A stretch of DNA of 22,317 bases from an uncultured Methanosarcinales archaeon (GTDB lineage Archaea; Nanobdellota; Nanobdellia; Woesearchaeales; CAYVYK01). The stretch covers positions 124,001-146,317 of the forward strand of contig CAYVYK010000003.1 of the NCBI GenBank assembly GCA_964455675.1. Direction: 5' to 3'. A model generated the notes under the pieces. That model saw nothing but the letters and a program-made list of their open reading frames with translations. It was not told where the DNA came from and did no database searches. The number at the start of each line of letters is the position of its first letter. The stretch's first letter is position 1. The translations under genes were made by a program, and so were the position numbers. Below, in pieces: positions 934 to 21,408 of this stretch.

Positions 934-939
934 ATCTAT

Positions 940-1938: not shown

Positions 1939-4900
1939 CTACACACCACCCCTTGCGCGCCCGAGAACTTCTTTCACCTGCGCCAGATGGGCGGCGAACG
2001 GCTCAAGGTACTCCCGCAAATGCGTCACACACGCACTCCTTGCTGGAGCAAGACTTGGAGACTTCCACTGCACGGCAGAAATCCTTCCTTCAACATTCAT
2101 CCATCGCACACCATGCTCTGGAATCAGGACCGATCCCAAACGGAACTGCAACTTCTGAAGATCCTCTCTTGTATCCTGCAATCTCACAAGGAACGCATGA
2201 TTCTGACGGAAAAGCTCCTCGATCGGACGAGGATCCTCGCGACCTCCATTCTGATTTGCCCGGAGAGCTTTGATATACGCGCTCAGGACCTTGTCCGCAT
2301 CACTCAATGCTTGGCGCAATTCCATAATCTGCAATTCCCTTAAGAGCACATCGGGCTTTCGCTGCATCAGTTTCTCAAATAGATCCTTCTTCTTTTGAAT
2401 AGTGGCATCATCCCACTGACGCATCGCGAGCACGGGCGCAGACACTCGCTCAATTCTTTCAAGTAATTCATCTGGAAGAGTTGGAGACACCTCTCCATAA
2501 GCCGTAACGTCACCAACTTCAAACTCAATAAAATTATGATCAAAGTAACTATGAGCATCCGTTTTTAGCACGTACAACTCCAGACGGTACATTCCTGGAT
2601 CTGCATGCAAGGGAACAGTGAACGTGAAGTTGATGTAGAACCTGCGATCCAATGAACGCTCAACAGGCTTATTGAGAGGGATATCAGTTGAACGGAACAC
2701 ACTGAATGGAATCCATGAACCTTCACGTCCAGACACCTCGCCCTTCCCTTCCCAATGCATCAGTGAGCCATCAGACCGCACGATCTGCGCGAGCACAAAT
2801 CCCCTTGGTTTGCCTTGCGCTTCCACCCTAAACGAGAGCGGATACGCGTGACTTGCTGAACCTCTCTGATATGGTATCCTGTACCGCGCACCAAGATTTG
2901 TGTCGTTTGGATGTTGATGGAATAATCCGCGCTGTCCCTTGTCAAGCCACGGGTTGATGAGAACCCACTGCTGTGAGGGATGATCAGTCACAATTATCTT
3001 CCGTCTCTTCTGCGCAATTTGTTGATCCCTGTGGAACACATTCACGATCACCCAATTCTCACCTGCTGCAAGTTCCTCAGCCTTTTTCATGAAGGCAATA
3101 TCCTCGCTCTCCGCATTCCATTGCGATTCATCCTGAACTCGGTCATGACCTGCTGTATACCACTTATATGAGAGGAATTTGTCCGGCGGATATATCTGAA
3201 TCTTCAAGACTTCGCTGCTCCCTGTCCGATACTCGTCCTCGCCAACCTCACCGTTGATACTGATCCGTGCATTATCAGCCTCGCTTGCGCGAGACTCTTT
3301 CATTATCGGCCGTATCTTCTGCGCAATGGGACGATTATTCTGATAAACTTCCATTACGATATACATTCTTCCGTCAGGAATTTCACGGCCTGGCAATCCA
3401 AACGAAAGCTCCCTACTCTGCTCTTCCCAGGTGCTACGTCTACGCGCTTGTTCAGGAGCAATCAGGTACCAAATACAGCGGACCGGAGCATTCGGAGGAT
3501 ACAGCTGCACGCGCATTTCCTCCATTGGTTTGAGCGAATACTCATCACTACCCACATCACCATTAATACTAATCGCAAGGTTGTCCTTCCCACGAGACTT
3601 GACCAGAATCGGGCGCTCAATGTGCGCTATCTGCTGATCCCTTTGGAATGCATCAACTATCACAAACGTTCTTCCGGCCTCTAAGGTGTTTGTTGCCTTC
3701 GCGAACTTAATGTCAAAGCTCTCAACCTTCCAGGAATTCTGATCGGACTTGCTGTGTTCAGGGACCGTATACCACTTGTACGAGAGATACTTGTCCGGCG
3801 GATAGATCTGGATGTTTAACTCCCTCTCATTTCCCACGACAAACTCATCAGCGCTCACGTCACCGTTGATGCTGATGCCAGCATTCGCTTGATTTTCCAC
3901 TTCTTTTCGGACCAATCTCGATTTTCGTGTCAGGAGAGTGCCGTGATGATAGACTTCTACGACAACAGCATTCTCACCGCTCGGCCAGCGGGGCACATCG
4001 ATCGTGAACTCCGGATCATTACTTACAGAATCTCCAAGGTTCTCGTCGGCGATGCGATCAGGAGGAACAATGAACCAGCGGCACGATACGTTTCTCCCTC
4101 TTGGCGGATATAGCTGAACCCTGAGCTCTTCCTCATTACTAATCCGGAATTCATCCTCACTCACGTCACCATTAATACTGATCTGAATAGCTGGCGGCCC
4201 TCGCTCTCTCCGCACTGCACGCATTACTCTTGCGATGCGAGTGTTCAATTGGAACACATCAACAATAACATAATTTCTTCCCTCAGGCCAGTCTGCCACT
4301 TTCATCTCGAAGAGCTGATCATTACTCACATTATTACTAGGACTCTCATCATTCATATTCTCTGGAGGGACAATATACCACCTGCACGAATACGGCCCTC
4401 TAGGCGGATAGAGCTGAACGCGAAGATCGCGCTCACTACCGATGACATACTCATCATCACTAACATCACCATTCACACTGATCTGCAACGCCGGCCCCGC
4501 AGTACGGAATAGGATGGAACACGGATCGGGGCGCACCAATCTCTCGCCAATTCTTGCCCGGAAATAGAACCAGAGCCTGCAGTTTCTCGTCATACGCATT
4601 CTTCGGGCTAATGCTTGCGTATCACGGCCGGAGAGAGCGTACAACAATTCCCCAGCAGTACCTCGATCCGATTGCGCGACCCTGCGTACGCTCAATGCAA
4701 TCCGGACTGGACGTCCGCCCTCGAGAAACACAAATGCTGCATCATCGAGGATCAACTGATTCGTGTTGATTGGTATTAGATAAAATCGTAACGATTCCCC
4801 AGGACGAGAATTGTCAGTTTCGTCTCCTGCATCATTAACTGCCTGTATTCTAAACGAAGGCTCACCAGGACGCGGGGGTTCACCTGGAGTATTCTCTACT

Positions 4901-5739
4901 GGAGGCTCTCCCGGAACTTCTGGAGGCCTATCAGCATCATCTCCGCCGATTTCCCTGCGTGGCCTTCTCCACCAATCACGCAACCTTCGCCACCATGGTT
5001 CTCGAGCAGGCCTTTCCGGTTCATCAACCTCTTCCCGGTCGCGGTTAAGCCAATTCCTGAACCTATTCCAAAGACCTCTCCCTCTGTTGCCCTGCGTTCC
5101 TCCCCTCGATAGACCAGACATTGCCAGGGCGAGAAGTGCCGCAAGAAGGAGCGCAAGCGCAAGGTATTTCCACCAGTCACCAATGCCGCCAGCTTCACTC
5201 GTGAGCCAGGCAAGGTACCCAAGGAGCGCAAGAGCCGCAGCTCCAAGCGCAATCCAAAGCCACTTGCCACCAAACTGATCCTTAAACGGGAAGTACAGGA
5301 GACTAAACAAAGTCGCCGCCGTCAGGAGTGCGCCCCAAAGACCTAGCGGCACAAGAACGGATTTGATAGCGGTTTCGACGCCGCGGAAACTGACGAGGTA
5401 AAAAATACCGTAAGCGCTCATGAGACCAAGCACGACAGCAAGAGCTTTGCCTGGCTTTGTTAGTCTGCCTCCAGAGAATCTTCCCTGCGTTTGACTTCCA
5501 ATCCCTTGACCCTCACGGAACGCAGGAATAAATCGAAGCGTCGCGGCGTAAATCGCTGTGAACGCCGCAAACGTTCCGATAAGGAGGGTGGAGACCATGA
5601 ATGTCGTACTTTGCGTTGAAGCAACAAGCATATTACCTGCAGTCGAGAAAATACCTGGAACCGTGAGCGCGTACGCACTCCTTGCCATGGCAGCGCCAAG
5701 CGCCGCCATCATGATCAACTTACGAGCGGCGCTTGCCAT
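1939..5739 (-). CDS. Large multi-pass membrane protein with tandem beta-rich (Ig-like) repeats and C-terminal coiled coil
   Basis: 1266 aa with SD AAGGAG before the ATG. Signal-like N-terminus and about 5 hydrophobic segments within residues ~1-210, an Arg/Trp/Pro-rich linker, five ISING(D/E)V...Q(L/I)YPP...W(Y/F) repeats, and a helical C-terminus. Confidence 0.85.
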   Translation of the reverse strand: MASAARKLIMMAALGAAMARSAYALTVPGIFSTAGNMLVASTQSTTFMVSTLLIGTFAAFTAIYAATLRFIPAFREGQGIGSQTQGRFSGGRLTKPGKALAVVLGLMSAYGIFYLVSFRGVETAIKSVLVPLGLWGALLTAATLFSLLYFPFKDQFGGKWLWIALGAAALALLGYLAWLTSEAGGIGDWWKYLALALLLAALLALAMSGLSRGGTQGNRGRGLWNRFRNWLNRDREEVDEPERPAREPWWRRLRDWWRRPRREIGGDDADRPPEVPGEPPVENTPGEPPRPGEPSFRIQAVNDAGDETDNSRPGESLRFYLIPINTNQLILDDAAFVFLEGGRPVRIALSVRRVAQSDRGTAGELLYALSGRDTQALARRMRMTRNCRLWFYFRARIGERLVRPDPCSILFRTAGPALQISVNGDVSDDEYVIGSERDLRVQLYPPRGPYSCRWYIVPPENMNDESPSNNVSNDQLFEMKVADWPEGRNYVIVDVFQLNTRIARVMRAVRRERGPPAIQISINGDVSEDEFRISNEEELRVQLYPPRGRNVSCRWFIVPPDRIADENLGDSVSNDPEFTIDVPRWPSGENAVVVEVYHHGTLLTRKSRLVRKEVENQANAGISINGDVSADEFVVGNERELNIQIYPPDKYLSYKWYTVPEHSKSDQNSWKVESFDIKFAKATNTLEAGRTFVIVDAFQRDQQIAHIERPILVKSRGKDNLAISINGDVGSDEYSLKPMEEMRVQLYPPNAPVRCIWYLIAPEQARRRSTWEEQSRELSFGLPGREIPDGRMYIVMEVYQNNRPIAQKIRPIMKESRASEADNARISINGEVGEDEYRTGSSEVLKIQIYPPDKFLSYKWYTAGHDRVQDESQWNAESEDIAFMKKAEELAAGENWVIVNVFHRDQQIAQKRRKIIVTDHPSQQWVLINPWLDKGQRGLFHQHPNDTNLGARYRIPYQRGSASHAYPLSFRVEAQGKPRGFVLAQIVRSDGSLMHWEGKGEVSGREGSWIPFSVFRSTDIPLNKPVERSLDRRFYINFTFTVPLHADPGMYRLELYVLKTDAHSYFDHNFIEFEVGDVTAYGEVSPTLPDELLERIERVSAPVLAMRQWDDATIQKKKDLFEKLMQRKPDVLLRELQIMELRQALSDADKVLSAYIKALRANQNGGREDPRPIEELFRQNHAFLVRLQDTREDLQKLQFRLGSVLIPEHGVRWMNVEGRISAVQWKSPSLAPARSACVTHLREYLEPFAAHLAQVKEVLGRARGGV
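2985..4490 (-). repeat. Five tandem ~100-aa intragenic repeats (~300-309 bp period)
   Basis: Units begin near 4488 (LQISVNGDV), 4188 (IQISINGDV), 3879 (GISINGDV), 3576 (AISINGDV) and 3267 (RISINGEV). Each contains DE(Y/F), Q(L/I)YPP, W(Y/F) and a V(I/V)V(D/E/N)V(F/Y)-like strand. Confidence 0.9.
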
Positions 5740-6534: not shown

Positions 6535-7386
6535 CTATACGTGCTCTTCGAGCAATGGTGTTATATCAATCTTACCGAGATCGTGCTTTGGCAACGGAAG
6601 CTTTAGTTGCGGAAGCTGTTCCTCATACAGCACTCGGTTCTCACGATAGAAGATTCCCGTCGGGATGCGGTCACCCCATTCCTGGGCTTTCTCCCACGCG
6701 AGCTTTCGGTTTGCAACATCATGATTCTCATCCTGCAACTTGTACACACGCTTCTGGAAATATTGGAACGTGTTCACGTTATTCCATGTCACGCATGGCT
6801 GGAGCACATCGACCAGAGCAAAACCCTTATGCTGAATCGCTTGCTCAATAAGCCATGTGAGATGCTTGACGTCACCTGCAAAACCTCGCGCAACAAACGT
6901 CGCGCCTTGCGTTATTGCGAGCGCGAGCGGGTTAACCGGTTCTTCAAGAGCCCCAAATGGCGAGGATGTGGATTTATACCCTTTTTCACTCGTCGGAGAA
7001 TACTGCCCCTTCGTGAGTCCATACACTTGATTATTATGCACGATGTACGCAATGTCATTATTCCTGCGCATGGCGTGCATGAAGTGCCCCATGCCAATAC
7101 CGTACCCATCGCCATCACCACCCGAACCTATCACCGTGAGTTCGGGATTCACGAGCTTAATGGATTCTGCGACAGGAAGCAAGCGCCCATGCAACGTTTC
7201 AAATCCGTATGTGCGCATGTAATGCGGCATCTTTCCGGAACACCCGATCCCCGAAACAAGACAAAGTTTATTGAGGTCAAGGTTCAGATTCACGATCGCG
7301 TTCTTGATCGCCATGAGGAGACCAAAGTTTCCACAGCCTGGACACCACTGCACCCTCTGCGGAGTTGTAAGGTCTTGCGCGTCCAT
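6535..7386 (-). CDS. korB: 2-oxoacid:ferredoxin oxidoreductase beta subunit (TPP-binding)
   Basis: WCPGCG, SGIGCS, LHGR, the GDGD...NN TPP motif, YGLTKGQ and LQPCVT. Substrate specificity cannot be determined. Confidence 0.95.
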   Translation of the reverse strand: MDAQDLTTPQRVQWCPGCGNFGLLMAIKNAIVNLNLDLNKLCLVSGIGCSGKMPHYMRTYGFETLHGRLLPVAESIKLVNPELTVIGSGGDGDGYGIGMGHFMHAMRRNNDIAYIVHNNQVYGLTKGQYSPTSEKGYKSTSSPFGALEEPVNPLALAITQGATFVARGFAGDVKHLTWLIEQAIQHKGFALVDVLQPCVTWNNVNTFQYFQKRVYKLQDENHDVANRKLAWEKAQEWGDRIPTGIFYRENRVLYEEQLPQLKLPLPKHDLGKIDITPLLEEHV

Positions 7387-9122
7387 CAGACCACCCCCCG
7401 TATGCGGTCAATCACGTCCTCAATCGCGAGGGCCTTACCTGTATACAACAACATCTGATCCTTGATGTCAATTCCCGTTTTCATCCGTATAACCTGGCCC
7501 GCCTGAGCGGTAGCATTATTCTCGATGAGCAATACCTTCTTCGCTGACTTGAGAATTCTCTCAACTGAAGATACCGGGAAAGGCGAGAAATACTTAATCT
7601 GCAAGAAATTCACTTTCTTTCCTTCCTTTGCGAGAATCTTCATCGCATCAAGGATCGCACCCTTTGTGCTGCCCCAACTGACGACTGTCAGATCAGCCTT
7701 CTCAGACCCATGCAGTGTATAACCCTTTGATTCAAGCTCTCGCTCGGCAAGCTGCAACTTCCTTGCGCGCTTATCAACCTGACGGATGCGCAAGCCAACA
7801 TCCTCAGTCGTATAACCATACTCATCATGCTCATAGGATGTTCCCTTGTTAATGCAATTTGGCTGACCTGGAATTGCGCGCGGGGAAATCCCATTGTCCG
7901 TTATCTGATATCGCTTGAAATCACGCTGCCTTGCAGCCTCATCGTCAGAAAGAAGCATTCCGCGGTCAATCTTCAGTTTTGATGTATCAAACCAGTCAAC
8001 ACAGAACGTTCCTTCACCAAGATGCTTATCCGTCAGCACGATCACCGGTGTCTGATATCTTTCTGCATAATTGAAAGCGTTAAACGTCTCGAAAAATGCC
8101 TCCTCTGCATCGCCAAAAGCAATCACAATCCTTGGGAACTCACCATGGCCTGCGTGCAGAACGAAGAGCAGCTCTCCTGCTTCAGTCATCGTCGGAAGTC
8201 CCGTACTTGGGCCGCTCCTCATCGCAAGGAGACAGACAAGGGGGACCTCGCTTAATCCTGCCATACTGAGCGCTTCCGTCATGAGGCAGAAACCGCCACC
8301 CGATGTCCCTGTCATCGACCTCGCGCCCGTGTATGCACCACCAATAATCATGTTCATTGCGGCAATCTCATCTTCGGACTGCTTGACAACCATGTCGTAC
8401 TCTCGCTCATGCGCAGCGAAAATACTAAGCAATGAGGATGCTGGCGTCATCGGATATGCAGCGTAAAACTTCAGACCTGCCTTGATAGCGCCGTAACTGG
8501 CGGCCTCATTACCTGAGATAATAAGTTTCCTTCCGGAAGATCTCGAAAACGTAAGCTGATATTCATAACCTCCAGCATACTGAGATTTTGCGACGTCATA
8601 ACCCCTACGCGCAGCCTCCACATTCATCGCAATCACATCACTACCTTTCTTCTTGTAATAATCACGCAAGAGATTATCAAGGACACTGAAATCAAGCTTC
8701 AGAAGGCCAACAACGGCTCCAAGAGAAACGGAGTTAATAATAAACTTAGGCCCCTTGAGGTCCCTCGCGATCTGATTCATTGGAACTTGAAACAATTGCA
8801 CGCCATCTGCATGCGCGTCCGGAACATCTTCCTTGTCATAAATGATCGCGCCGCCATCCATGAGTTCGCCCTTATGAAGATCGAACGTCTCCTTATTCAA
8901 CGCGATCACGCAATCAACCCGCTTCAGCGTCATGTGAACAGGCTGGTCCTCAACGCGGATGGTTTGATAGTTGTGACCTCCACGGATAAGGCTTGGATAA
9001 TCAGCAACAGCAACAGGATATAATCCCAGACGAGCGCAGAGTTTTGAGAACAATAATCCAGTCGTCATGATGCCAAAACCTGCTTCTCCGCCGACTAGTA
9101 CAGAGAACTGATTCGTCTTCAT
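7386..9122 (-). CDS. korA: 2-oxoacid:ferredoxin oxidoreductase alpha subunit (fused gamma-alpha)
   Basis: GGEAGFGI, DYPSLIRGGHN, SGNEA, YPMTPAS, EDEIAA, TSGGGF and RSGPSTGLPT. Start reassigned to the ATG at 9122 (MKTNQF), preceded by SD GAGGTG, which avoids overlap with ferredoxin. Confidence 0.95.
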   Translation of the reverse strand: MKTNQFSVLVGGEAGFGIMTTGLLFSKLCARLGLYPVAVADYPSLIRGGHNYQTIRVEDQPVHMTLKRVDCVIALNKETFDLHKGELMDGGAIIYDKEDVPDAHADGVQLFQVPMNQIARDLKGPKFIINSVSLGAVVGLLKLDFSVLDNLLRDYYKKKGSDVIAMNVEAARRGYDVAKSQYAGGYEYQLTFSRSSGRKLIISGNEAASYGAIKAGLKFYAAYPMTPASSLLSIFAAHEREYDMVVKQSEDEIAAMNMIIGGAYTGARSMTGTSGGGFCLMTEALSMAGLSEVPLVCLLAMRSGPSTGLPTMTEAGELLFVLHAGHGEFPRIVIAFGDAEEAFFETFNAFNYAERYQTPVIVLTDKHLGEGTFCVDWFDTSKLKIDRGMLLSDDEAARQRDFKRYQITDNGISPRAIPGQPNCINKGTSYEHDEYGYTTEDVGLRIRQVDKRARKLQLAERELESKGYTLHGSEKADLTVVSWGSTKGAILDAMKILAKEGKKVNFLQIKYFSPFPVSSVERILKSAKKVLLIENNATAQAGQVIRMKTGIDIKDQMLLYTGKALAIEDVIDRIRGVV

Positions 9123-9135
9123 ACTACACCTCTTT

Positions 9136-9354
9136 TTAGATAATCTTCTGATCCTTGTCATCATAGATATGGATGACATTCACGGGGCACGAGTCCGCGG
9201 CAGCCTTATTCGGAGCGTACTCCTCATCGGAGAGCTCCGTCTTCTTCGGCCTTGACTTGCCATCCTTCATCTCCCAGTTCGCAGGACACAAGTTCGCGCA
9301 GGCACCGCAGCCAATACAATTCTTCTCATCGTGAACAATCTTGAACTTTGCCAT
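9136..9354 (-). CDS. Single-cluster [4Fe-4S] ferredoxin
   Basis: CIGCGACANLCP...SCPVNVI. Likely start MAKFK at 9354. Minus-strand TTTAAATA at 9391-9384. Confidence 0.92.
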   Translation of the reverse strand: MAKFKIVHDEKNCIGCGACANLCPANWEMKDGKSRPKKTELSDEEYAPNKAAADSCPVNVIHIYDDKDQKII

Positions 9355-9502: not shown

Positions 9503-12340
9503 ATGGAAGGACAACCACTTTCTCGATTTACATCACTGCCATGGATTATTTCACTTGTTGTTATTGTGTCGTTTGCGGTACTCGCGATGGCACATGACAA
9601 AAGCATTGAAGCAGCACGATCGCCAAGCGCATTCGCGGTCGCTGGAGCGGAGATGCTTAGTATCGGCGAACCAACGAAGAAGACAACACAAACACTGCGC
9701 AGCATGACACTATCATCCCCAGATAAAGGAGGCGACGCACCAAGGTCCTTGTGCGGAAATGGTATCTGTGAGGAAGATGAAACCACAGAAACCTGCCCTG
9801 TTGACTGTCCGATGACACCCGAGTGCGGGAATGGAATCTGCGAACCACCAGAGGATCCAGAAACTTGTTCAGACTGCCTTGAGGACATCGTATGCGGTGA
9901 TGCAGTCTGCGAGTTTCCCGAAACTGCCGAGACTTGCCCTGAGGATTGTGCACCATCAGTGTTTGAGTGCAACGATCATACCTATTTGGACGCGCCAGGG
10001 GTTCGACCGGTTCTCGGAGATGCGCTCAACGTTGCTGTCAGTGAACTTGGAGAAGATGATTTGCCATTCCTCCTTGCGGATGGATGGGTTGAGCAGAACG
10101 AAGGGTCTGCCTTCCCGTATGAGCAGACTTTAGATATCAGTGGGTGCGCTAGATTTAGCTTTGGCACACCAGAAATCTTTGACAGTCGTACTCCGATCGT
10201 CCACTTGGACACAACATCATGCACAAGTTCAAATCCCATGTATACATACACCATGGATTTCGTGAACGCAAACCTTTCAGACTCTCCAGGTCGAGACATC
10301 AGGATTCTTGGACGAACCTATCTAGTTTCTGCAATCCCAACGGATGTATCATTCTCGAAACTCACGCTCTGGAGAGACTTCGCTTCTGACATCGTTAATG
10401 TAGGTGAGGAACGCGTTATCAACCATGTCACCATCCAGGTCCTTGGAGCGAACACTGATGAAGGCACAGCAACTATTGTTGTGGATGGAGAGACCATGCA
10501 AGTAGAAGAAGGAGACCACATAATCTCGTCCTTCTCTGATATGCATGTTTTCGTTAAGGATATCTTCCTGCAGACGGTACCCGTCCCCACAGCAGCAGTA
10601 GAATTCATCGTCTTTGCGGATGAGATCGTTCTGCAAAATGGCGAGATGGTAGTGGTGAATGGCGAGTCCTACGATGGCACTCGTGCGACATTCACAAGCT
10701 CATCCATCCTTGATAAAATCCAGGTCGCCCTGTTCCCGAACGAGCTCGGAATCCCTGGCGGACTTGAGGACGTTGAATACCTCGAAGCTGGAAACTATCC
10801 GATGCCCGACGCAGAAATGCACTTCAACCCTCTCTTTGACCCTGTGTGGATGTCACTTTTGTCTGACTTTGTTGGATTATCACAAATGGTGGATGATGAA
10901 AGTCGGGACATCATTACGTACCAGGGAACCGGATCAAAAGTGCAGATGAGCTTTGCGAACAAGGCAGAGGTTATTGCACAAGTCGACTTTAACTTTGAAG
11001 CGACAGAGGAAGGAAATCTCGGAAAGCTCAAGTATGGAACCAAATGGCTCCACTGGGATGAAAACGATGGAGATAATGTCACGGTTCCTGAGGATGACTA
11101 CTTCCTCCTCAATATGAACCATAATCCGACGTACACCTACGTGGTAAAGTTCACTTCGTACAGCAGTACCCCTGGAAGCGAGAAATTTGACTGTGCTGTT
11201 GTCGGCCTGCCGGGAGATCCCTGCGACTACATCGATGAACATCACGGAAAGATCACGCTTGGAGGAAAAACTATTGATGTGCTTATCTGGACATTTGGAC
11301 CAGACCCAACCCTCTCCATCCGAGCATTTGGACCCTACTTCCAAGGCGGTATCGGAAAGGAAATCTACACGATGAATGACGCCAAAATCACTCTTCAGAG
11401 AGGGAACCTGTACAGCTGGGGATACTCGATCAACAGGACGTCCATGATACAAGATGCGGAGCGAGCTGATTACACAAGCGATGAAGGTGAAATCATCACG
11501 GTGCAGATGCGATATGATCCATCCGAGGGAGCCGCAGAGCTGTACACCTATTGGTTTGAAGGAACATCGTTCCCACCAGTGCCTGACATGGACACGCACT
11601 CGCTGCAGGGCATGACTGATTTTGGAACATACGCAGTGCTTGACGCAGACACGTACAAGTCAGCATACCTCTACGTTCCGGATGGAGAAGTCAACATGCT
11701 ATTTGAGTTTAAGAGCGATATCTCCACAGATTGCAGCCCACCATACCAGTGCGTGGCGCATGAATGTGTCATGCCACCGCCATCCATCAAGTACCGTGTT
11801 TTTGTGACAAACAATTCCTGGACTGGCAATCTTGGAGGACTTGCCGGAGCGGACCAGAAGTGTGCCCAGGCGGCTACAAATGCAGGCCTTCGAGGAATAT
11901 GGAAAGCATGGATCAGTGACGACTGCAAGGATGCGAAGGAACGTCTCTATCACTCGACGTTCCCCTACGTGCGCCTTGATGGCGTTACCATCGCTAAGAA
12001 CTGGGATGATCTCACGGATGGGTCGCTTTCTTCCGCAATTCTCGTGACCGAATACGGACAGAATGCCACTGATTTCAGCAATGTCTGGACTGCCACGGAC
12101 GCGACCGGAACTGCCATACCAAGTCAATTCTATTGTGGAGGCTGGACAACACCATCTGGCCGCGGCGGAATTGGAGTATGGGATCATACAGACTCGGGAT
12201 GGACATACTATGGTGCTGTATCATGTGATGCACCAGGAAGGCTTTACTGCTTTGAACAGCCAAAGCTGCAGCCAATTCCCATGCCTGTGCCCCATGAACT
12301 CGTATCAGAGTCAGTTCCGAAGGCATACGCAGTTGAGTAA
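9503..12340 (+). CDS. Surface protein: N-terminal TM/signal, Cys-rich repeats, S-layer-like acidic beta-rich body, C-terminal DUF1554 (endostatin-like) domain
   Basis: Hydrophobic N-terminus and three CG(N/D)xxCE...ETCxxDC-type repeats. The acidic middle (LPFLLADG...YEQTL...YTYTMDF) resembles archaeal S-layer proteins. The C-terminus VFVT...GNLGGLAGADQKC...WKAWIS...VWT...LYCFEQ is characteristic of DUF1554. Confidence 0.8.
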   Translation: MEGQPLSRFTSLPWIISLVVIVSFAVLAMAHDKSIEAARSPSAFAVAGAEMLSIGEPTKKTTQTLRSMTLSSPDKGGDAPRSLCGNGICEEDETTETCPVDCPMTPECGNGICEPPEDPETCSDCLEDIVCGDAVCEFPETAETCPEDCAPSVFECNDHTYLDAPGVRPVLGDALNVAVSELGEDDLPFLLADGWVEQNEGSAFPYEQTLDISGCARFSFGTPEIFDSRTPIVHLDTTSCTSSNPMYTYTMDFVNANLSDSPGRDIRILGRTYLVSAIPTDVSFSKLTLWRDFASDIVNVGEERVINHVTIQVLGANTDEGTATIVVDGETMQVEEGDHIISSFSDMHVFVKDIFLQTVPVPTAAVEFIVFADEIVLQNGEMVVVNGESYDGTRATFTSSSILDKIQVALFPNELGIPGGLEDVEYLEAGNYPMPDAEMHFNPLFDPVWMSLLSDFVGLSQMVDDESRDIITYQGTGSKVQMSFANKAEVIAQVDFNFEATEEGNLGKLKYGTKWLHWDENDGDNVTVPEDDYFLLNMNHNPTYTYVVKFTSYSSTPGSEKFDCAVVGLPGDPCDYIDEHHGKITLGGKTIDVLIWTFGPDPTLSIRAFGPYFQGGIGKEIYTMNDAKITLQRGNLYSWGYSINRTSMIQDAERADYTSDEGEIITVQMRYDPSEGAAELYTYWFEGTSFPPVPDMDTHSLQGMTDFGTYAVLDADTYKSAYLYVPDGEVNMLFEFKSDISTDCSPPYQCVAHECVMPPPSIKYRVFVTNNSWTGNLGGLAGADQKCAQAATNAGLRGIWKAWISDDCKDAKERLYHSTFPYVRLDGVTIAKNWDDLTDGSLSSAILVTEYGQNATDFSNVWTATDATGTAIPSQFYCGGWTTPSGRGGIGVWDHTDSGWTYYGAVSCDAPGRLYCFEQPKLQPIPMPVPHELVSESVPKAYAVE
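9752..9949 (+). repeat. Three Cys-rich ~23-aa repeats
   Basis: CGNGICEEDETTETCPVDC, CGNGICEPPEDPETCSDC and CGDAVCEFPETAETCPEDC. Confidence 0.9.
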
Positions 12341-12839: not shown

Positions 12840-13814
12840 TTGCTGTACAGCATTAGAAAAGAGGTGGTGGGATCGTTCCTCTCGGCAGTCCAGAAGGACA
12901 ACCAGCTGTATGCGCCTGTGCGTCAAGGAACTGTTCGTTTCTCAATGATAGAGGATCCGAATACGATATGCCTTGATGAGAACACCGTCATGCCGCTCAA
13001 ACAATTCTTCTTTCCGCAGCGTAGTGTGATCTTTTCCTTTCAGGGAACAAAAATCACTATCCCCAGGGAAAACATACCTTCACGCGTGTTCTTCGGCGTG
13101 CGAAGATGCGACCTGAATGCAATCAGGCATCAGGACATGATGTACATGGAGAAATTCAAGGATCCAATCTATATAGCACGACGGCAGGCAAGCGTTCTCA
13201 TCGGGTACCACTGCCCTATGCCGCCAAGCAAGTACTGCTTCTGTGGTTCCCATAATCTTGGGGACTATTACGATCTTATGTTTTTCGACCGAGGATCAGA
13301 GTATCATGTCCACATCGGTTCACTGCGTGGAGAAGAGTTCTTCAAAAAGTATACGAATCACTTCACGCCTATCAATAAAGAGATCACCGAACAAGATAAA
13401 AAAATACCTGGCTCTGACCGACTGAAACGAACGAACATCAAAGACCTTTACCATCATCCTGACTGGATACCGAAAGGAGTGGACCGGTGCATCAGCTGTG
13501 CGGCATGTACAACACTATGCCCAACATGCTATTGCTCAGAAATGCACGATGAGCAACACGTGGGAGCAACAAAGATCGGGAACCGAGTACGGACATGGAG
13601 CTCATGCCAGCTCAAGGAATTCACAAAAGTTGCAGGAGGCCATACATTCCGCGAAAGCCGAGAGGGAAGATTCAAGCACCGTATCTACCACCAGATGGAA
13701 TACTTCAAACAAAAGAACGGTGTGACACTCTGCGTTGGATGCGGACGCTGCATCCAGTCATGCCCAACGGACATCGACTGGGTGGACATCATCAACAAGA
13801 TGGGTGACAGATGA
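12840..13814 (+). CDS. hydB: Group 3b sulfhydrogenase beta subunit (4Fe-4S dicluster, AsrA-like)
   Basis: GVRRCD, CFC, CISCAACTTLCPTCYC, WSSC and CVGCGRCIQSCP. TTG start, with TTTTTAAA about 35 bp upstream. Confidence 0.9.
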   Translation: MLYSIRKEVVGSFLSAVQKDNQLYAPVRQGTVRFSMIEDPNTICLDENTVMPLKQFFFPQRSVIFSFQGTKITIPRENIPSRVFFGVRRCDLNAIRHQDMMYMEKFKDPIYIARRQASVLIGYHCPMPPSKYCFCGSHNLGDYYDLMFFDRGSEYHVHIGSLRGEEFFKKYTNHFTPINKEITEQDKKIPGSDRLKRTNIKDLYHHPDWIPKGVDRCISCAACTTLCPTCYCSEMHDEQHVGATKIGNRVRTWSSCQLKEFTKVAGGHTFRESREGRFKHRIYHQMEYFKQKNGVTLCVGCGRCIQSCPTDIDWVDIINKMGDR

Positions 13815-14617
13815 TGGCTGCGCGATCGAAACTCATCCCCTGGCCCGTGAAGATCATCAATCGGGTTCAAGAAAGCGAAACGAACTTCACGATAACCCTT
13901 GACGCCAAACTCAAGCATGATCCAGGCCAATTCGTGCAAGTCGGAATCCCAGGAGTTGGAGAATCACCAATCTCGTTTGCATCATACTCAAGCAAGTTCG
14001 TAAAACTCAATATCAGCATGGTCGGAAAAGTCACGATTGCGCTCTCAAAACTGAAAGTCGGTGAAACCGTCCTCATCCGAGGACCATATGGGCACGGCTA
14101 TCCCCTTGACAAACTCTACGGAAACACCGTGTATTTCGTCGGGGGTGGATGCGGCATCGCACCATTGAAAGGAGCGATCGACTACGTCGAACACTATCGA
14201 GAAAAATATCGGGATGTCGTGCTTTTCCTTGGATACCGAAGCCCGAACGATATTCTCTTCAAGAAAGAAATCGAGGAATGGAGAACTAAATACCATCTCA
14301 CAGTGACCGTCGACAAAAATCCCCCAGGAACCTGCTACGAAGGTGCAGTTGGCTTTGTGACGGATGCAGTGAAAGCCGCAAGCATGAATACTGAAGGGAG
14401 CATTGCGATCGTGTGCGGACCACCCATGATGATGAAAAACGCGATCATCGCACTCAAGAGCAAAGGATTCCGGGATGAGCAGATCTTCCTGAGCCAAGAA
14501 CGGCTCATGTACTGTGGCATCGGCGTATGCTGCCACTGCATGATCCAAGACAAGTTCTGCTGCGAGGACGGGCCGGTCTTCAGGTATGATGAAATCAAGG
14601 GGTATGAGTTTGACTAA
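13811..14617 (+). CDS. hydG: Group 3b sulfhydrogenase gamma subunit (FAD/NAD(P)-binding, 2Fe-2S)
   Basis: PGQF, GESPIS, RGPYGHG, GGGCGIAP, CGPPMM and ERLMYCGIGVCCHC...CEDGPVF. ATGA overlap with the upstream gene. Confidence 0.92.
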   Translation: MMAARSKLIPWPVKIINRVQESETNFTITLDAKLKHDPGQFVQVGIPGVGESPISFASYSSKFVKLNISMVGKVTIALSKLKVGETVLIRGPYGHGYPLDKLYGNTVYFVGGGCGIAPLKGAIDYVEHYREKYRDVVLFLGYRSPNDILFKKEIEEWRTKYHLTVTVDKNPPGTCYEGAVGFVTDAVKAASMNTEGSIAIVCGPPMMMKNAIIALKSKGFRDEQIFLSQERLMYCGIGVCCHCMIQDKFCCEDGPVFRYDEIKGYEFD

Positions 14618-15365
14618 ACCAAGAATAGGCATATTCGGCCTTACCGGATGCGCAGGATGCCAGCTCAGCATCATCTTCAACGAAGATGAGATTCTCAATT
14701 TGCTTGATGTCATCGACATTCGCGCATTCCCATTCATTAAAGGAAACAACGACGAGGAAAACTTTGACATCGTGTTCATGGAAGGACTCGTGGCAGACAA
14801 AGAAGACCTTGAAACACTCAAGAAAATACGTGGCAAGACGAAAAAGCTCGTCGCTCTGGGAGCATGCGCACACACGGGATGCATCCCTGCGTATCGCAAC
14901 TACACTATGCCATCACCCTACGAACACCTCTACTACAATAAACGCGAACGGATCAAGGATGTAAAACCCTCTGCGATCAACGAACATGTCACCGTTGATT
15001 ACGTCATCCCCGGGTGTCCGCCCGACAAAAAGGAAATTCTCGCATTCATCCAGGCAGTTGCCCACGGCATCGAGCCAAAATCCTACACGAGCCCAGTATG
15101 CGTGGAGTGCAGGCGCAACAACAACGAATGCCTGCTCATCAAAGGAAAACCGTGCCTTGGGCCCATCACACGCGGAGGATGCAATTCCGTATGTGTGAAC
15201 GGAAAACTCGAGTGCTGGGGCTGTCGCGGACCGACGGATGACGCGAACTTCGCGCTCATGGTACGCCTGCTGCGGCAAAAAGGGTATAGCGATGACTTCA
15301 TCAGGAAGCGGATGAGAAGCTTTGCAGGAGTCCTTTATCCAGAAGACAAGGTGCTTTTCCCATGA
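14604..15365 (+). CDS. hydD: [NiFe] hydrogenase group 3b small (delta) subunit
   Basis: GCAGCQ, EG, GACAHTG, PGCPP, VCVEC, CLGPIT and CWGCRG. Start reassigned to MSLTKP at 14604, after SD AGGGGT. Confidence 0.93.
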   Translation: MSLTKPRIGIFGLTGCAGCQLSIIFNEDEILNLLDVIDIRAFPFIKGNNDEENFDIVFMEGLVADKEDLETLKKIRGKTKKLVALGACAHTGCIPAYRNYTMPSPYEHLYYNKRERIKDVKPSAINEHVTVDYVIPGCPPDKKEILAFIQAVAHGIEPKSYTSPVCVECRRNNNECLLIKGKPCLGPITRGGCNSVCVNGKLECWGCRGPTDDANFALMVRLLRQKGYSDDFIRKRMRSFAGVLYPEDKVLFP

Positions 15366-16649: not shown

Positions 16650-17528
16650 ATGAACACAAAAGGAATCTATCTTATCCTCACCGCTGCAATCATTTCAGGT
16701 TTCTCAATATTCCTCAATAGTCGTGCTGTTATAGGCATCGATAGCTCGATCTTCACGCTTGCGAAGATTGTGCTTGTGGCAATGGCACTGCTCTGTATCA
16801 TTCTTGGCACCATGGCATTTCGTGACATCACGCGTTTATCAGCGACAGAATGGGGAATGCTCTCCCTTGTTGGACTCATAGGTGGATCAGTGCCGTTTCT
16901 CCTGTTCTTTAAGGGACTGCAGATGACGACAGGATCAACTGCTGGACTCATCCAGAAAACACTCTTTATCTTCGTGATTGTGTTCGCAATCTTTTTCCTC
17001 AAAGAGAAGATCACGAAATCATTTGCTGCCGGAGCTGCACTACTCCTGCTCTCCACGTTCCTCATCACGCCATTCAACGGCTTGCAAACAGGACACGTGC
17101 TCGTGCTCACTGCCGCGATCCTCTGGGCGGGTGAATACGTCCTCTCAAAACACATGATTACGCACGTGCCTGCACTCGTCGTTGCATTTGGACGAATGGC
17201 GTTTGGATCGCTCTTCATCCTTCTCTATATCATCATTGCCGGCAAGGGTAACATGCTGCTTCCAAGCGTTGGATCGCACGTGGGTTGGATACTCATCACA
17301 AGTCTATTCCTTCTCGCGTATGTCATAACATTCTATACAGGGCTTGCAGGGGTCCCCGTGAGCACTGCGGCATGTATCCTTACCATCAGCGCGCCAATCT
17401 CCACGCTCCTATCGCTCTTTACCGGCGGAACAATCAGTATACTGCAGACACTTGGCATTGCCACTGGAATTCTTGGAGCAATCACCATCCTATGGACAAC
17501 TCGAGCATCTTATCCATCACGCGCATGA
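16650..17528 (+). CDS. EamA/DMT-family transporter (~10 TM)
   Basis: Two EamA-like halves (e.g. AIFFLKEKI, VAFGRMAFG). Start MNTKG at 16650 after SD GGGGTGA, 10 bp downstream of hydA. Confidence 0.88.
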   Translation: MNTKGIYLILTAAIISGFSIFLNSRAVIGIDSSIFTLAKIVLVAMALLCIILGTMAFRDITRLSATEWGMLSLVGLIGGSVPFLLFFKGLQMTTGSTAGLIQKTLFIFVIVFAIFFLKEKITKSFAAGAALLLLSTFLITPFNGLQTGHVLVLTAAILWAGEYVLSKHMITHVPALVVAFGRMAFGSLFILLYIIIAGKGNMLLPSVGSHVGWILITSLFLLAYVITFYTGLAGVPVSTAACILTISAPISTLLSLFTGGTISILQTLGIATGILGAITILWTTRASYPSRA

Positions 17529-18232
17529 ACGGAATCGAAATTGCAGCACGGTTCTCGTACAGCGTCAACAAGCTTGGATACTGCGGACCAGACGATGCAA
17601 ATACGCTCACGGAAAAGTACCTTAGGGGACAAACCACCGATAGCGAACTCAAGACCGCACTCTGCAAGTTCCAGGCAATGTACCCCTATCTTTGCGCAAT
17701 AGCAAGTAAGCATGGCTTGCAGCCATTTGACAAAAAGGTCGTGGAGGCATACTGGATCGGCAACGACCTTCTCGATACATTTACACCTGACGACATAAAA
17801 GGAATACTCACTACCCTCATGAACCGAGGGCTACCACCGTCCATCGGCAAGCCGCTCCTATCCCGTGTGCGGGAAGGGCTCTTTCCCCATCACAACCTTC
17901 ACGTCTTTTTCATCGGCGTTGGACAAATGACTGGCTCTGTGCCAAGCACTATCGAGACGATGCAGCAATGCCGGGTGACTTCTGGCATCGTTCATTTGGT
18001 CGAGAAAGACACTCTCACTGTTGAAACAGATATGACCATCTACGATAAGGGAGTATGGAAGACTGGGAAAGGTTTGCGACGGAAAATAGGATATCATCCG
18101 CTTTTCCTTCCATCAGTCAAGATCGGAGATATTGTCGCAGTGCACTGGAATTTTGCACCAATGATCCTTACTAAGCAACACCAGAAAAATCTCCGGAATG
18201 CTACTTCATCACTTTTTGCGGCTCTCTCGTAG
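17525..18232 (+). CDS. DUF6390-like protein with C-terminal HypC-like domain
   Basis: ARFSYSVNKLGYCGP, MYPYL, VVEAYWIGN, PHHNLHVF, CRV and GDIVAVHW; family recognised from memory of these motifs. Start reassigned to 17525 (ATGA overlap with the transporter). Confidence 0.8.
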   Translation: MNGIEIAARFSYSVNKLGYCGPDDANTLTEKYLRGQTTDSELKTALCKFQAMYPYLCAIASKHGLQPFDKKVVEAYWIGNDLLDTFTPDDIKGILTTLMNRGLPPSIGKPLLSRVREGLFPHHNLHVFFIGVGQMTGSVPSTIETMQQCRVTSGIVHLVEKDTLTVETDMTIYDKGVWKTGKGLRRKIGYHPLFLPSVKIGDIVAVHWNFAPMILTKQHQKNLRNATSSLFAALS

Positions 18233-18431
18233 CTTCCTTATAGAGTTTTAGGGCGGCACGGGCCTCTTTTGAAGGAACCTTCTGCAGAACAATGCCTGCT
18301 TGCACAATCACGTACTGCCCCACGCGATATGACGACTCAAGAAGCTTTGCCCTGCGGCGCTCAACCTCATAATCGATCAAGGCGGTGTCACCATCGATTG
18401 AAATAATTCTCCCGGGAACAGCAAGGCACAT
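18201..18431 (-). CDS. hypC: HypC/HybG/HupF hydrogenase chaperone (conserved His replaced by Gln)
   Basis: N-terminal MCLAVPG. VGQYVIVQAG replaces the canonical vGdyVlvHxG. Has its own TATA box (ATATAAAAA, 18461-18453). Confidence 0.9.
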   Translation of the reverse strand: MCLAVPGRIISIDGDTALIDYEVERRRAKLLESSYRVGQYVIVQAGIVLQKVPSKEARAALKLYKEATREPQKVMK

Positions 18432-18491
18432 ACATACACGGAGAGTCTTGCGGTTTTTATATCTTTGTTTGAACGACCTATTCGCTTTTGT

Positions 18492-18878
18492 CTATGTACT
18501 CTTCATCATACGCTTGAGGATCACGGCTGTTTTTGCAGCGAGGTCCTGCACGTCCCCCCTCATTGGCACAGCAACAATACGAACCCTCCTCTTTTTCCCA
18601 GACATTCGCTCCTGAAGTTTCAGAAAGAACGCAAGATCAAAGTCATGAAGCGAAACCATCTTTGGATCCGCAAGATGGTCGATATCCGTGATTAGTATCG
18701 GTTCGTGAATATTCTGTGCGACGTCAAGAATGATGAACTCTCTGTCAATATACGAAGCAATGATCTCGGGAGAATCGCATGGAATAAACGTGAATCCTTT
18801 CAACTTCAGAACACTTGCAATACTCTTCGCCATTCTATCTTCTTCGACTAAAGCATTGCCAAAACACAAAACATCCAC
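18492..18878 (-). CDS. Hydrogenase maturation endopeptidase (HycI/HybD-like)
   Basis: VLCFGNALVEED, IILDV and SLHDFDL match the GNxLxxDD, D and sxH motifs. Probable GTG start at 18878 just after the hypA stop; the ATG at 18896 is an alternative. Confidence 0.8.
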   Translation of the reverse strand: MDVLCFGNALVEEDRMAKSIASVLKLKGFTFIPCDSPEIIASYIDREFIILDVAQNIHEPILITDIDHLADPKMVSLHDFDLAFFLKLQERMSGKKRRVRIVAVPMRGDVQDLAAKTAVILKRMMKST

Positions 18879-18879
18879 A

Positions 18880-19200
18880 TCATTCAACCTCAACATTCCT
18901 GAGCACGATCTCGTCACCACTTGTTAAGGGAGGTACCTGTGTGCAGAGAGGGCATTCATACATCGCAATATCATGACCCCGCTCAAGGATCTTTGGTGCG
19001 CCAACATATCCACAGGAACACTCGATCGCTGCCTTAACAATCTCCATATCGACGGGATAGGGAACAATGCTCCGGAGTGTTGCATGCAGTTCCTCGGGAG
19101 GTACATGAGCCAACTCTCCAACAGAAATAGACATTCTTGTTACTTTCCCATGACTCTCGGCTTCCGCAACAAGCCTTCGGGCAAAAACCATCTCATGCAT
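18880..19200 (-). CDS. hypA: Nickel metallochaperone HypA
   Basis: N-terminal MHE Ni motif, VGEL, Zn site CSCG...CPLC, and SGDEIVL. Confidence 0.93.
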   Translation of the reverse strand: MHEMVFARRLVAEAESHGKVTRMSISVGELAHVPPEELHATLRSIVPYPVDMEIVKAAIECSCGYVGAPKILERGHDIAMYECPLCTQVPPLTSGDEIVLRNVEVE

Positions 19201-19315: not shown

Positions 19316-19717
19316 ATGGCATCACTCGTCAACCATCACACCCGTGATTATATCAAGTCGCGGGCAGAACTAGGGATGACTGAGTCGGAAATCAAAGTGG
19401 AACTTCTCAAAGGTGGGTGGACGACACAGCAAACAAATCAGCTCATGCAAGAGTATCGACAGTCGCTACCGCTCCACAGCAGTGCACCGGATCATTCCAT
19501 GTTCTGGAGCGTGAGTATCCTCGTTGCGAGCATATTTGTGCTCTCAACCATGCTCTTTGCATTCCTTGGACCAAACGTGACGGGACAAGTCGTTGCCGGT
19601 CTTCCGAACACTGATCCATTCGTTTCAGGATTTGGAGTGCTCGTGATTGCGAATATCATCTTTCTCCTTGTGGCAATCACGTTTGTCGTCCTTACCGTAC
19701 GATGGGAAAAACGATGA
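19316..19717 (+). CDS. Hypothetical membrane protein (small N-terminal helical domain plus 2 TM)
   Basis: YIKSRAELGMTESEIKVELLKGGW helical module followed by two hydrophobic segments. ATGA-coupled to rlmH. Confidence 0.75.
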   Translation: MASLVNHHTRDYIKSRAELGMTESEIKVELLKGGWTTQQTNQLMQEYRQSLPLHSSAPDHSMFWSVSILVASIFVLSTMLFAFLGPNVTGQVVAGLPNTDPFVSGFGVLVIANIIFLLVAITFVVLTVRWEKR

Positions 19718-20136
19718 GGCATCTGTACCTTCTCACAGTCGGAAAATACAGTGATGCGAACTACCGCAAGCTCTGTGAGGAATACATCAAGCGCGCAGGC
19801 GCGTGGAGCACTATACATATCAGTGAAATCAAAGATGCCGGAAAGCGAACACAAGAGTGGATTCAGAAGATCGTTCCGGCTGGAGCTGCATGTTACTGCC
19901 TTGACGAACATGGAAAAACATATTCCAGCGGGGAATTTGCCAAGCTCTGCGACCAGCCAAAAATGGCTATCATCATCGGCGGGGCCGATGGACTCGCACC
20001 GGAACTCCTTCGCAAGTACCCCTGCATATCGCTCTCACGGATGACTATGGCTCATGAACTCGCCAAACTGGTATTCCTGGAACAGTACTACCGCGGCCTT
20101 TGCCTCTTACATAATCATCCTTACCATCGAGGATAA
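19714..20136 (+). CDS. rlmH: 23S rRNA pseudouridine-1915 N3-methyltransferase RlmH (SPOUT)
   Basis: LLTVGK, EYIKR, LDEHGK.YSS.EFA, IIGGADG, SLSRMTMAHEL, LEQYYRG and HPYHR. Start MRHLY at 19714. Confidence 0.93.
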   Translation: MRHLYLLTVGKYSDANYRKLCEEYIKRAGAWSTIHISEIKDAGKRTQEWIQKIVPAGAACYCLDEHGKTYSSGEFAKLCDQPKMAIIIGGADGLAPELLRKYPCISLSRMTMAHELAKLVFLEQYYRGLCLLHNHPYHRG

Positions 20137-21171: not shown

Positions 21172-21408
21172 ATGACCGGCAGGGGCAAGCGAACGCACAA
21201 GGCAATTCAAGGACAATTGCTGCGGACGCTTGCACGCGAGCAGCTCTCAATCCATGATCTTGCATCTCGTGCAGGAGTAAACTGGAGCACAACCCAGCGC
21301 CAACTCATCATCCTGAAGGGCAAGGATCTTGTCCGTGAGGTATTCTCCCATCCACGCCTTCGACTCTTTGAAATCACGCCGAAAGGAAAAGAGGCGACTC
21401 CGCGATGA
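21172..21408 (+). CDS. Winged helix-turn-helix regulator
   Basis: LSIHDLASRAGVNWSTTQRQLIILKGKDLV HTH followed by the wing RLFEITPKG. Confidence 0.85.
   Translation: MTGRGKRTHKAIQGQLLRTLAREQLSIHDLASRAGVNWSTTQRQLIILKGKDLVREVFSHPRLRLFEITPKGKEATPR

Follow-up and report, generated by a model that had tools for sequence, protein, structure and literature searches.

The 22,317-nucleotide stretch of DNA analyzed here (hereafter referred to as the window) stems from contig CAYVYK010000003.1 (positions 124,001 to 146,317) of the uncultured archaeal genome GCA_964455675.1, and it carries a gene cluster for a group 3b [NiFe]-hydrogenase along with a small and unusual set of accessory genes. The four structural genes are followed on the same strand by a gene for an EamA-type permease and a gene for a member of the DUF6390 protein family; the hypA, putative endopeptidase and hypC genes are transcribed in the opposite direction and converge on the EamA-DUF6390 pair (Table 1). 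Only 11 nucleotides separate the stop codon of hydA from the likely start codon of EamA (Met at 16650), a start that we prefer over the beginning of the open reading frame (ORF) because homologues align from about residue 22 of this ORF onward. The DUF6390 gene, encoding 235 residues, begins with the ATG at 17525, which shares an ATGA with the stop codon of EamA, and ends at 18232, where it overlaps the final 32 nucleotides of hypC. An earlier reading of this DNA, made from its sequence alone, had listed the same set of genes, including a His-to-Gln replacement in HypC, and we found all of them at the positions that it gave. It had further proposed that DUF6390 takes the place of the maturation protein HypD and that the permease imports a precursor of the hydrogenase cofactor.

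Table 1. Genes and domains of the hydrogenase cluster, in window coordinates.
Feature	Position	Strand	Evidence
hydB, 4Fe-4S subunit, group 3b	12840..13814	+	Fer4_22; best NCBIfam match sulfhyd_ShyB, 1.8e-52
hydG, FAD/NAD-binding subunit	13811..14617	+	NAD_binding_1, DHODB_Fe-S_bind; NCBIfam AsrB-like, sulfhydrogenase gamma
hydD, hydrogenase small subunit	14586..15365	+	Oxidored_q6; sulfhyd_ShyD, 1.5e-63
hydA, [NiFe] large subunit, 425 residues	15362..16639	+	Pfam and NCBIfam
EamA/DMT permease	16650..17528 (ORF opens at 16587)	+	PF00892, two repeats, 4.5e-30, 105 bits
DUF6390, N-terminal all-helical domain	17525..17971	+	Alignments; AlphaFold2 predicted local distance difference test (pLDDT) score 92.6 when folded alone
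DUF6390, C-terminal HypC-like oligonucleotide/oligosaccharide-binding (OB) domain	17969..18232	+	Profile, VIA-align, PF01455
hypC, 76 residues	18201..18431	-	PF01455, 1.8e-16, 60.5 bits; TIGR00074, 51 bits
Putative divergent hydrogenase maturation endopeptidase	18492..18896 (142-residue ORF to GTG at 18920)	-	Homologues match PF01750 (HycI)
hypA, nickel metallochaperone, MHE N-terminus	18880..19200	-	PF01155, 3.8e-8; NF001976, 1.9e-13

The assignment of the enzyme to group 3b relies on its best NCBIfam matches, which are the alpha, beta, gamma and delta subunits of sulfhydrogenases and which all remain below the equivalog cut-offs. Inspection of HydA revealed the motifs RICGICSAAH, EAPRG, VTPTAQN and DPCFSCSTH, with all four metal-binding Cys residues in place, so that the intact L1/L2 Cys and APRG/TPT motifs mentioned in the sequence-only reading are indeed there. 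A C-terminal tail of seven residues follows the last His.

In the canonical pathway, Cys2 of HypC and Cys41 of HypD hold the Fe(CN)2CO unit between them (PMC11565642), and a second account credits six Hyp proteins with building the cofactor for every [NiFe]-hydrogenase (PMC12130793). The genome from which the window originates (1.717 Mb in 25 contigs, 99.0% complete, 0.44% contaminated) does not possess this full set. For this analysis, as for all genomes discussed below, most of which are drafts, we relied on searches with hidden Markov models (HMMs), in which a fast prefilter was followed by HMMER; the same profiles recovered Hyp genes in the control genomes in which they were expected. Whole-genome profile searches yielded zero matches for HypD (PF01924) and zero for HypE (TIGR02124). 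HypF was not found genome-wide either, the only hits being partial matches of 32 and 20 bits to its YrdC-like and acylphosphatase parts, which are ordinary housekeeping relatives. For the GTPase-type HypB there was a single match genome-wide of 25.8 bits, below the cut-off; Mrp/MinD-type HypB was not searched for. Hence, HypA and HypC are present, HypD and HypE were not found, and HypF and HypB are represented by sub-cut-off matches only, which agrees with the earlier suggestion that HypB, HypD, HypE and HypF are missing. HydG was considered as an alternative source of CO and cyanide and rejected; the host genome does not encode it, and none of its 17 radical-SAM matches lies in the window.

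To place these absences in a wider context, we drew an even sample of 301 genomes (at least 80% complete) from the same order. A hydrogenase large subunit was detected in 118 of them (114 over the cut-off), and HypD was present in 27 of these and absent from 91. The 91 hydrogenase genomes without HypD divide into 36 with DUF6390, 43 with a full-length short homologue of DUF6390 that is described below, and 12 with neither form. HypD was accordingly found in 2/81 hydrogenase genomes that possess either form, compared to 25/37 that possess neither; DUF6390 and HypD coincide only in genomes G340 (full) and G316 (a 26-bit fragment). Two of the genomes counted here are unpublished, namely G327 with the short form and G154 with neither; if they are left out, 116 genomes have the large subunit, 42 have the short form in place of HypD and 11 have neither form. 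HypE accompanied HypD in 27/27 genomes (26 over the cut-off), and HypF did so in 26/27. Among 40 sampled HypD-negative genomes, 20 with the long and 20 with the short form, HypE exceeded the cut-off in none (one contains a 109-bit paralogue match) and HypF was found in none. GTPase-type HypB was present in 10/27 HypD-positive and 1/40 HypD-negative genomes. Since this protein is also absent from 17/27 HypD-positive genomes, its absence is not specific to the module, and we rejected loss of HypB as the driver. Six of the HypD-positive genomes (G219, G323, G200, G089, G309 and G068) contain a second, longer large subunit of 502-527 residues that scores about 210 bits against PF00374; for at least four (G219, G323, G089 and G068), hypD is located on the same contig, and a second hydrogenase from a different group may be what keeps HypDEF in these six genomes.

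A similar distribution was found outside this order. In an even sample of 151 genomes from the class Thermoplasmata, DUF6390 was present in 12, HypD in 98 and both in none, so that HypD occurs in 0/12 genomes with DUF6390 versus 98/139 of the others. We inspected 50 further DUF6390 genomes, taken from 50 of 80 loci (20 Woesearchaeota/Nanoarchaeota and 30 Thermoplasmata), and 48 of these possess neither HypD nor HypE over the cut-off. The two remaining ones contain HypD: in G016 it is located beside HypE on a small contig, and in G043 both HypD and HypE are broken across frames, which may reflect sequencing error and was not counted as evidence for pseudogenes. The anti-correlation between DUF6390 and HypD thus amounts to near mutual exclusion in two archaeal lineages. 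One might argue that nothing unusual lies behind this pattern, HypD, HypE and HypF having been missed through gaps or divergence, or the hydrogenase being a decaying relic. The draft state of most genomes, the fast first look that precedes HMMER and the possible sequencing error in G043 could be held in favor of such a view. We nevertheless consider it very improbable: the host genome is 99% complete, two phyla show the pattern, the same searches detect HypD in the control genomes as well as in 98/151 Thermoplasmata, and the four Cys residues and the PRG motif are kept in 31/31 large subunits from loci without HypD. Furthermore, the single-contig genomes G065 and G141 contain DUF6390 and a hydrogenase and are devoid of HypD, HypE and HypF, which argues that the absence of these proteins is not an assembly artefact.

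Genomes of the HypD type and of the DUF6390 type occur side by side in seven family-level groups (f23, f50, f64, f75, f80, f90 and f94), and an eighth (f105) hinges on the unpublished G327. We placed 42 HydA sequences in a tree by a quick maximum-likelihood search, rooted it at the midpoint for drawing only, and mapped the presence of HypD onto it. The label requires nine changes, at least eight of which are forced by well-supported branches, and it clusters no better than shuffled labels do (160/500 shuffles were as low). For instance, HydA of the HypD-positive genome G211 is the sister of a HydA from a DUF6390 locus with 99% support. In their active-site motifs, the 31 large subunits encoded at loci without HypD are indistinguishable from the 11 of HypD-positive genomes. 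We therefore argue for repeated switching between HypD and DUF6390: mixed groups, an interleaved tree and identical motifs indicate that near-identical enzymes coexist with either accessory set.

The synteny suggested by the sequence-only reading is conserved. As judged by tblastn, which we used since an ORF-based count underestimates the neighbors in high-GC Thermoplasmata loci, the gene immediately ahead of DUF6390 is EamA in 72/72 loci whose upstream side extends for 1.1 kb or more; hydA is found within 6 kb upstream in 51/59 loci, and hypC within 6 kb in 34/42. In a Candidatus Kerfeldbacteria record from the candidate phyla radiation (CPR), EamA and DUF6390 are fused into a single protein of 563 residues. 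By contrast, EamA was found in 0/12 hydrogenase/hyp regions of 10 HypD-positive genomes. We found no further conserved neighbors; after the nine genes of the module, the next most frequent cluster is represented in only 4/35 sources (34 low-GC loci and the window). On contigs from soil metagenomes, hypC-EamA-DUF6390 also stands behind group-1-like hydrogenases. In two of these, with bacterial hypA-hypC-EamA-DUF6390 clusters (L147:8809-9147, plus strand, and likewise L157), a 112-residue AIRS_C fragment directly follows DUF6390; its best tblastn match is HypE, of which it may be a remnant.

DUF6390 is a large family (1658 clusters at 50% identity, E ≤ 0.001), and the protein encoded in the window matches its profile PF19927 with 137.3 bits (cut-off 25) over residues 2-230. 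Across 29 homologues, C20-G21, the VVEAYWIGNxLL motif, H123, C149 and H207-W208 are invariant. AlphaFold2 predicts the full-length protein with a pLDDT of 96.2 as ten helices (residues 1-149) followed by a small barrel and a last helix. C20, the EAYWIGN motif and H123 belong to the N-terminal domain, for which Foldseek returned no match at E ≤ 0.001; an acyl carrier protein fold was considered for it and rejected, as the best VIA-align Z score of 4.1 was taken to reflect a generic helix bundle. C149 and H207-W208 belong to the rear domain, and several lines of evidence relate this part to HypC. The profile of the DUF6390 family matches HypC of T. kodakarensis (2z1c; E 0.0066) over the GDxVxxHxGFA stretch, 2z1c_A is the top match in VIA-align (Z 5.8, root-mean-square deviation 1.8 Å, 70 of 71 residues), and Foldseek gives a target-normalised TM score of 0.69 to 2z1c_B. 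The match of PF01455 to the rear domain is weak (E 0.014, 16 bits) and below the cut-off of 28.5. In the predicted structure, the rear domain exhibits the OB-fold barrel and C-terminal helix of the HypC/HupF family. H207, invariant in 29/29 sequences, aligns with the conserved His of T. kodakarensis HypC; the conserved His of the GDxVLVHxGFA motif is presumably equivalent to His51 of E. coli HypC. C149 lies directly in front of strand 1, the position of Cys2 in HypC, and it is an internal residue, so the N-terminal Cys that typifies HypC is lacking. Profile, Pfam and structure comparisons hence agree with the earlier proposal that DUF6390 contains a HypC-like domain.

The short homologue is encoded by a gene for 154-180 residues that fills the slot between EamA and hypC in 12/20 fetched loci with a hydrogenase and with neither HypD nor DUF6390. 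In a profile-profile comparison, it matches DUF6390 with a probability of 97.5% (E 6e-12), and the match takes in part of the front domain. It retains the Cys/His/Cys/His pattern (C14, H83, the nearly invariant C105, and H148), and its rear part matches PF01455 with E values down to 4e-7; two of six tested sequences pass the cut-off (30.6 and 30.0 bits) and four fail. Given these sequence similarities, we treat the short homologue as a putative compact form of DUF6390. In one relative (L093:15909-16757, minus strand), a cytidylyltransferase-like domain (PF01467) precedes it in the same reading frame, either as a fusion or through a merged gene call, and a stand-alone PF01467-type gene is located ahead of hydB in another relative (L086:4733-5239, plus strand).

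The HypC protein encoded in the window begins with MC, and Gln44 (in VIVQAGIV) replaces the conserved His of the family. This is a general trait: the His is lost from 22/22 stand-alone HypC proteins of HypD-less loci, where Q, S, N, G or K replaces it, versus 8/8 HypC proteins from HypD-positive genomes that keep it in VLVH(V/A)GFAI. The HypC-like domain within DUF6390 or its short form always retains the His. The endopeptidase ORF, whose translation probably starts with the Met at 18896, has no Pfam match of its own and an 18-bit NCBIfam match; 17/18 of its aligned homologues match PF01750 (best 8e-6). Searching sequences of the PDB with the profile of this family did not return an endopeptidase, the best match being a ribosomal protein at E 0.16. 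G13, N14, D20, D58, H84 and D85 are invariant in the family, and D20, D58 and H84 may represent the metal triad of a hydrogenase endopeptidase. A crude hydropathy scan of EamA revealed hydrophobic segments along the entire chain. Its conserved residues are K60, K124, E140, E183, K188 and R203, and it possesses no conserved Cys or His, which weakly suggests that an anionic small molecule is a slightly likelier substrate than a bare metal ion.

We modeled the interaction between HypC and DUF6390 of the window from alignments of 21 and 29 rows, respectively, in three runs accompanied by three controls. The predicted complex obtained scores of 0.74, 0.72 and 0.73, and the best control 0.00. The mark used for such scores is reached by 116/157 solved complexes and 2/215 mismatched pairs, and it serves as a rough guide only, as our own alignments were used as input. 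At least 86% of the contacts are common to the three runs, and neither partner falls below a pLDDT of 88. The predicted interface comprises residues 1-6, 42, 44-47 and the C-terminal helix of HypC, and residues 14, 17-23 (with C20), 47-53, 98-107, 123 (H123), 126-135, 145 and 148-149 (with C149) of DUF6390. In this model, Cys2 of HypC is placed at the pocket formed by the invariant Cys and His residues of DUF6390. No solved complex exists for the DUF6390 family, and because the contact is made by its new front domain, recall of a HypC-HypD structure is unlikely to be behind the score.

The observed distribution would best be explained if EamA and DUF6390 jointly allowed the cell to do without HypDEF, since they are the only conserved, uncharacterized genes of the cluster, appear where HypDEF vanish, and do so as HypC simultaneously loses its His. 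We regard it as very likely that DUF6390 is a maturation factor of [NiFe]-hydrogenases and acts at the step of HypC. The overall reading that we favor, and to which we assign a probability of about 0.45, is that of a module independent of HypDEF: HypC would dock onto DUF6390, and EamA would provide the product for which HypDEF are otherwise needed. Such a self-contained group 3b module would mature its enzyme in the absence of HypD, HypE and HypF. DUF6390 would take the place of HypD, with the modeled pocket of Cys20, His123 and Cys149 meeting Cys2 of HypC, and the two proteins might jointly hold an iron unit destined for HydA. EamA could provide, from outside the cell, either a source of the ligands or a ready-made iron-ligand unit. 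HypA would add the nickel, upon which the endopeptidase would remove the seven-residue tail of HydA. A more specific version of this scheme, which we regard as conceivable and yet rather doubtful, is that in many Woesearchaeales, soil Thermoplasmata, CPR and other bacteria the permease imports a source of cyanide and CO or a ready Fe-CN-CO unit, and that the site of two Cys and two His residues in DUF6390 captures it and hands it to the His-less HypC. In that case, anoxic communities would share the organometallic core of the cofactor as a good open to salvage.

Several of our observations weigh against this interpretation. Plasmid NZ_CP012886.2 of Mycobacterium intracellulare carries hydrogenase genes and, next to them, an operon of the order hypF-hypC-...-hypE-hypC-hypD, in which DUF6390 comes directly after hypD; on plasmid CP003180.1 of Sulfobacillus acidophilus it follows hypF-hypC-hypD-hypE. 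G340 contains DUF6390 without EamA and harbors hypC, hypD, hypE and hypF on another contig. In the HypD-positive genome G211, a degenerate DUF6390-like gene of 177 codons (L110:10749-11282, minus strand) is located between the endopeptidase gene and hypF; EAYWIGN and HWG are kept, and there is no clear first Cys motif. The presence of DUF6390 within full hyp operons implies a role that is independent of the absence of HypD, so that the protein is not simply a HypD analogue. DUF6390 lacks a [4Fe-4S] motif and similarity to HypD; its only matches are PF19927 and the weak one to PF01455, and it has two invariant Cys residues. The module contains no gene product similar to an enzyme that could make cyanide with ATP, and, to our knowledge, no free compound of the Fe(CN)2CO type has been found in nature. 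Among the 91 hydrogenase genomes without HypD, 12 have neither form of DUF6390 (4 of these 12 have only sub-threshold large-subunit matches). The score of the complex expresses the confidence of a model rather than a measurement, and the absences depend on HMM searches of draft genomes. Finally, related genomes are non-independent observations, for which reason we give no P-value. The proposal that DUF6390 replaces HypD is supported by its near-exclusive distribution in two lineages and by the modeled docking of Cys2 of HypC, and weakened by its co-occurrence with HypDEF on the two plasmids and in G340. The sequence-only reading had named routine co-occurrence of DUF6390 with HypD as speaking against its proposal, and outside these lineages the two do occur together on the Mycobacterium and Sulfobacillus plasmids; the related genome G340 also has both. 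Its picture of a reduced-genome archaeon that salvages the cofactor from a host has proved too narrow, as this module is also present in soil bacteria and in Thermoplasmata whose genomes measure 1.5-2.9 Mb.

Fusions of DUF6390 to helix-turn-helix (HTH) heads of the GntR, PadR, ArsR and XRE types (P0095, P0102, P0103 and P0123) also run counter to our interpretation, since they suggest that DUF6390 is possibly a domain that senses or binds a ligand or a metal; it is possible that these fusion proteins are regulators sensing the same ligand. The gene for the PadR fusion (L118:8001-9107) is located 5 kb upstream of genes for a hydrogenase small and large subunit. These fusions, this gene position, the occurrence of DUF6390 alongside full HypCDEF sets on the two bacterial plasmids, and four invariant Cys/His residues compatible with a metal site are what one would expect under the main rival explanation, namely that EamA moves nickel, ferrous iron or a chelate, that DUF6390 is a metallochaperone or sensor delivering the bare metal to HypC or HypA, and that the ligands are made by as yet unrecognized genes elsewhere. 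We consider this unlikely, though the most serious of the rivals. The module tracks the loss of HypDEF (HypE in 27/27 versus 0/40 genomes) and not that of HypB; there is neither another conserved gene near the hydrogenase nor a HydG in the host genome; EamA is devoid of conserved Cys and His residues; and the model docks DUF6390 onto Cys2, the iron-carrying residue of HypC.

The position of DUF6390 directly after hypD or hypE in the bacterial operons might alternatively indicate that it carries or protects the finished Fe(CN)2CO unit on its way to the large subunit, with lineages devoid of HypDEF relying on ligand units or proteins of neighboring cells and EamA not being the route of entry. 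The HypC-like domain with its conserved His would suit such a carrier, and the organism from which the window originates is an archaeon of the DPANN type. This explanation appears quite improbable to us, because EamA adjoins DUF6390 in all 72 archaeal loci that could be inspected and is once fused to it, and because the module is also present in Thermoplasmata and in soil-metagenome clusters, which are not obviously host-bound.

If DUF6390 is indeed a partner of HypC, the arrangement would be akin to the HypC-HypD scaffold of E. coli and T. kodakarensis (3vyr) in two respects: Cys2 of HypC is predicted to lie beside a Cys that is conserved in a larger partner, and the gene for this partner occupies the slot next to hypC. 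However, DUF6390 has no likeness to HypD in sequence or fold and no [4Fe-4S] motif, and it contains a HypC-like domain itself; the suppliers of cyanide to HypD, HypE and HypF, are absent here. With HypC, HybG and HupF (PF01455; 2z1c, 2ot2), the rear part of DUF6390 shares the predicted OB fold, the C-terminal helix and the GDxVxxH motif with its His, but its Cys is internal (residue 149), it is preceded by a helical domain of 148 residues, and its Pfam score is below the cut-off. For HybG, an adduct of +136 Da has been reported (PMC8692609). The hyp operons of M. intracellulare and S. acidophilus resemble the cluster of the window in that the DUF6390 gene neighbors the structural genes of a hydrogenase and is translationally close to hyp genes; in contrast, HypF, HypC, HypD and HypE are all present in them, no EamA gene is annotated next to DUF6390, and the hydrogenases belong to other groups. 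At L104:11070-12433, the mycobacterial operon additionally encodes a protein of 236 residues with a HypC-like stretch in its final 50 residues, and a protein with a SIS domain that is located between hypC and hypE.

About three quarters of the hydrogenase genomes in one archaeal order (91/118), along with some soil Thermoplasmata, are devoid of HypDEF, yet the active-site motifs of their enzymes are kept. If EamA and DUF6390 do substitute for HypDEF, they would form part of a second and much smaller maturation pathway of five small genes. This would bear on the unsolved source of the CO ligand in anaerobes, change how hydrogen metabolism is deduced from metagenomes, and possibly make it easier to produce [NiFe]-hydrogenases in heterologous hosts. 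Our literature search did not reveal a paper that mentions DUF6390 or one that joins HypC, EamA and a hydrogenase; it did not extend to the supplementary tables of metagenome papers, which may list missing hyp genes. Nor did it retrieve anything relevant on hydrogenase maturation in Woesearchaeota or DPANN archaea, or on the absence of hypD, hypE and hypF from Thermoplasmata.

Downstream of hypA, the window encodes an RlmH-like SPOUT methyltransferase (19702-20136) and a small winged-helix protein (21172-21408), neither of which has a visible link to the module. Four ORFs of 303, 332, 1266 and 945 residues in the regions 22-5739 and 9503-12340 belong to no Pfam family, the last of them having weak DUF1554/endostatin-like matches; these large proteins are probably surface proteins. 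The genes for a two-subunit 2-oxoacid:ferredoxin oxidoreductase with POR alpha and beta domains (6535-9179, minus strand) are located 3.7 kb upstream of the hydrogenase genes. A por pair is likewise found 3 kb from the hydrogenase at locus L097, and this enzyme may be the source of electrons for the hydrogenase.

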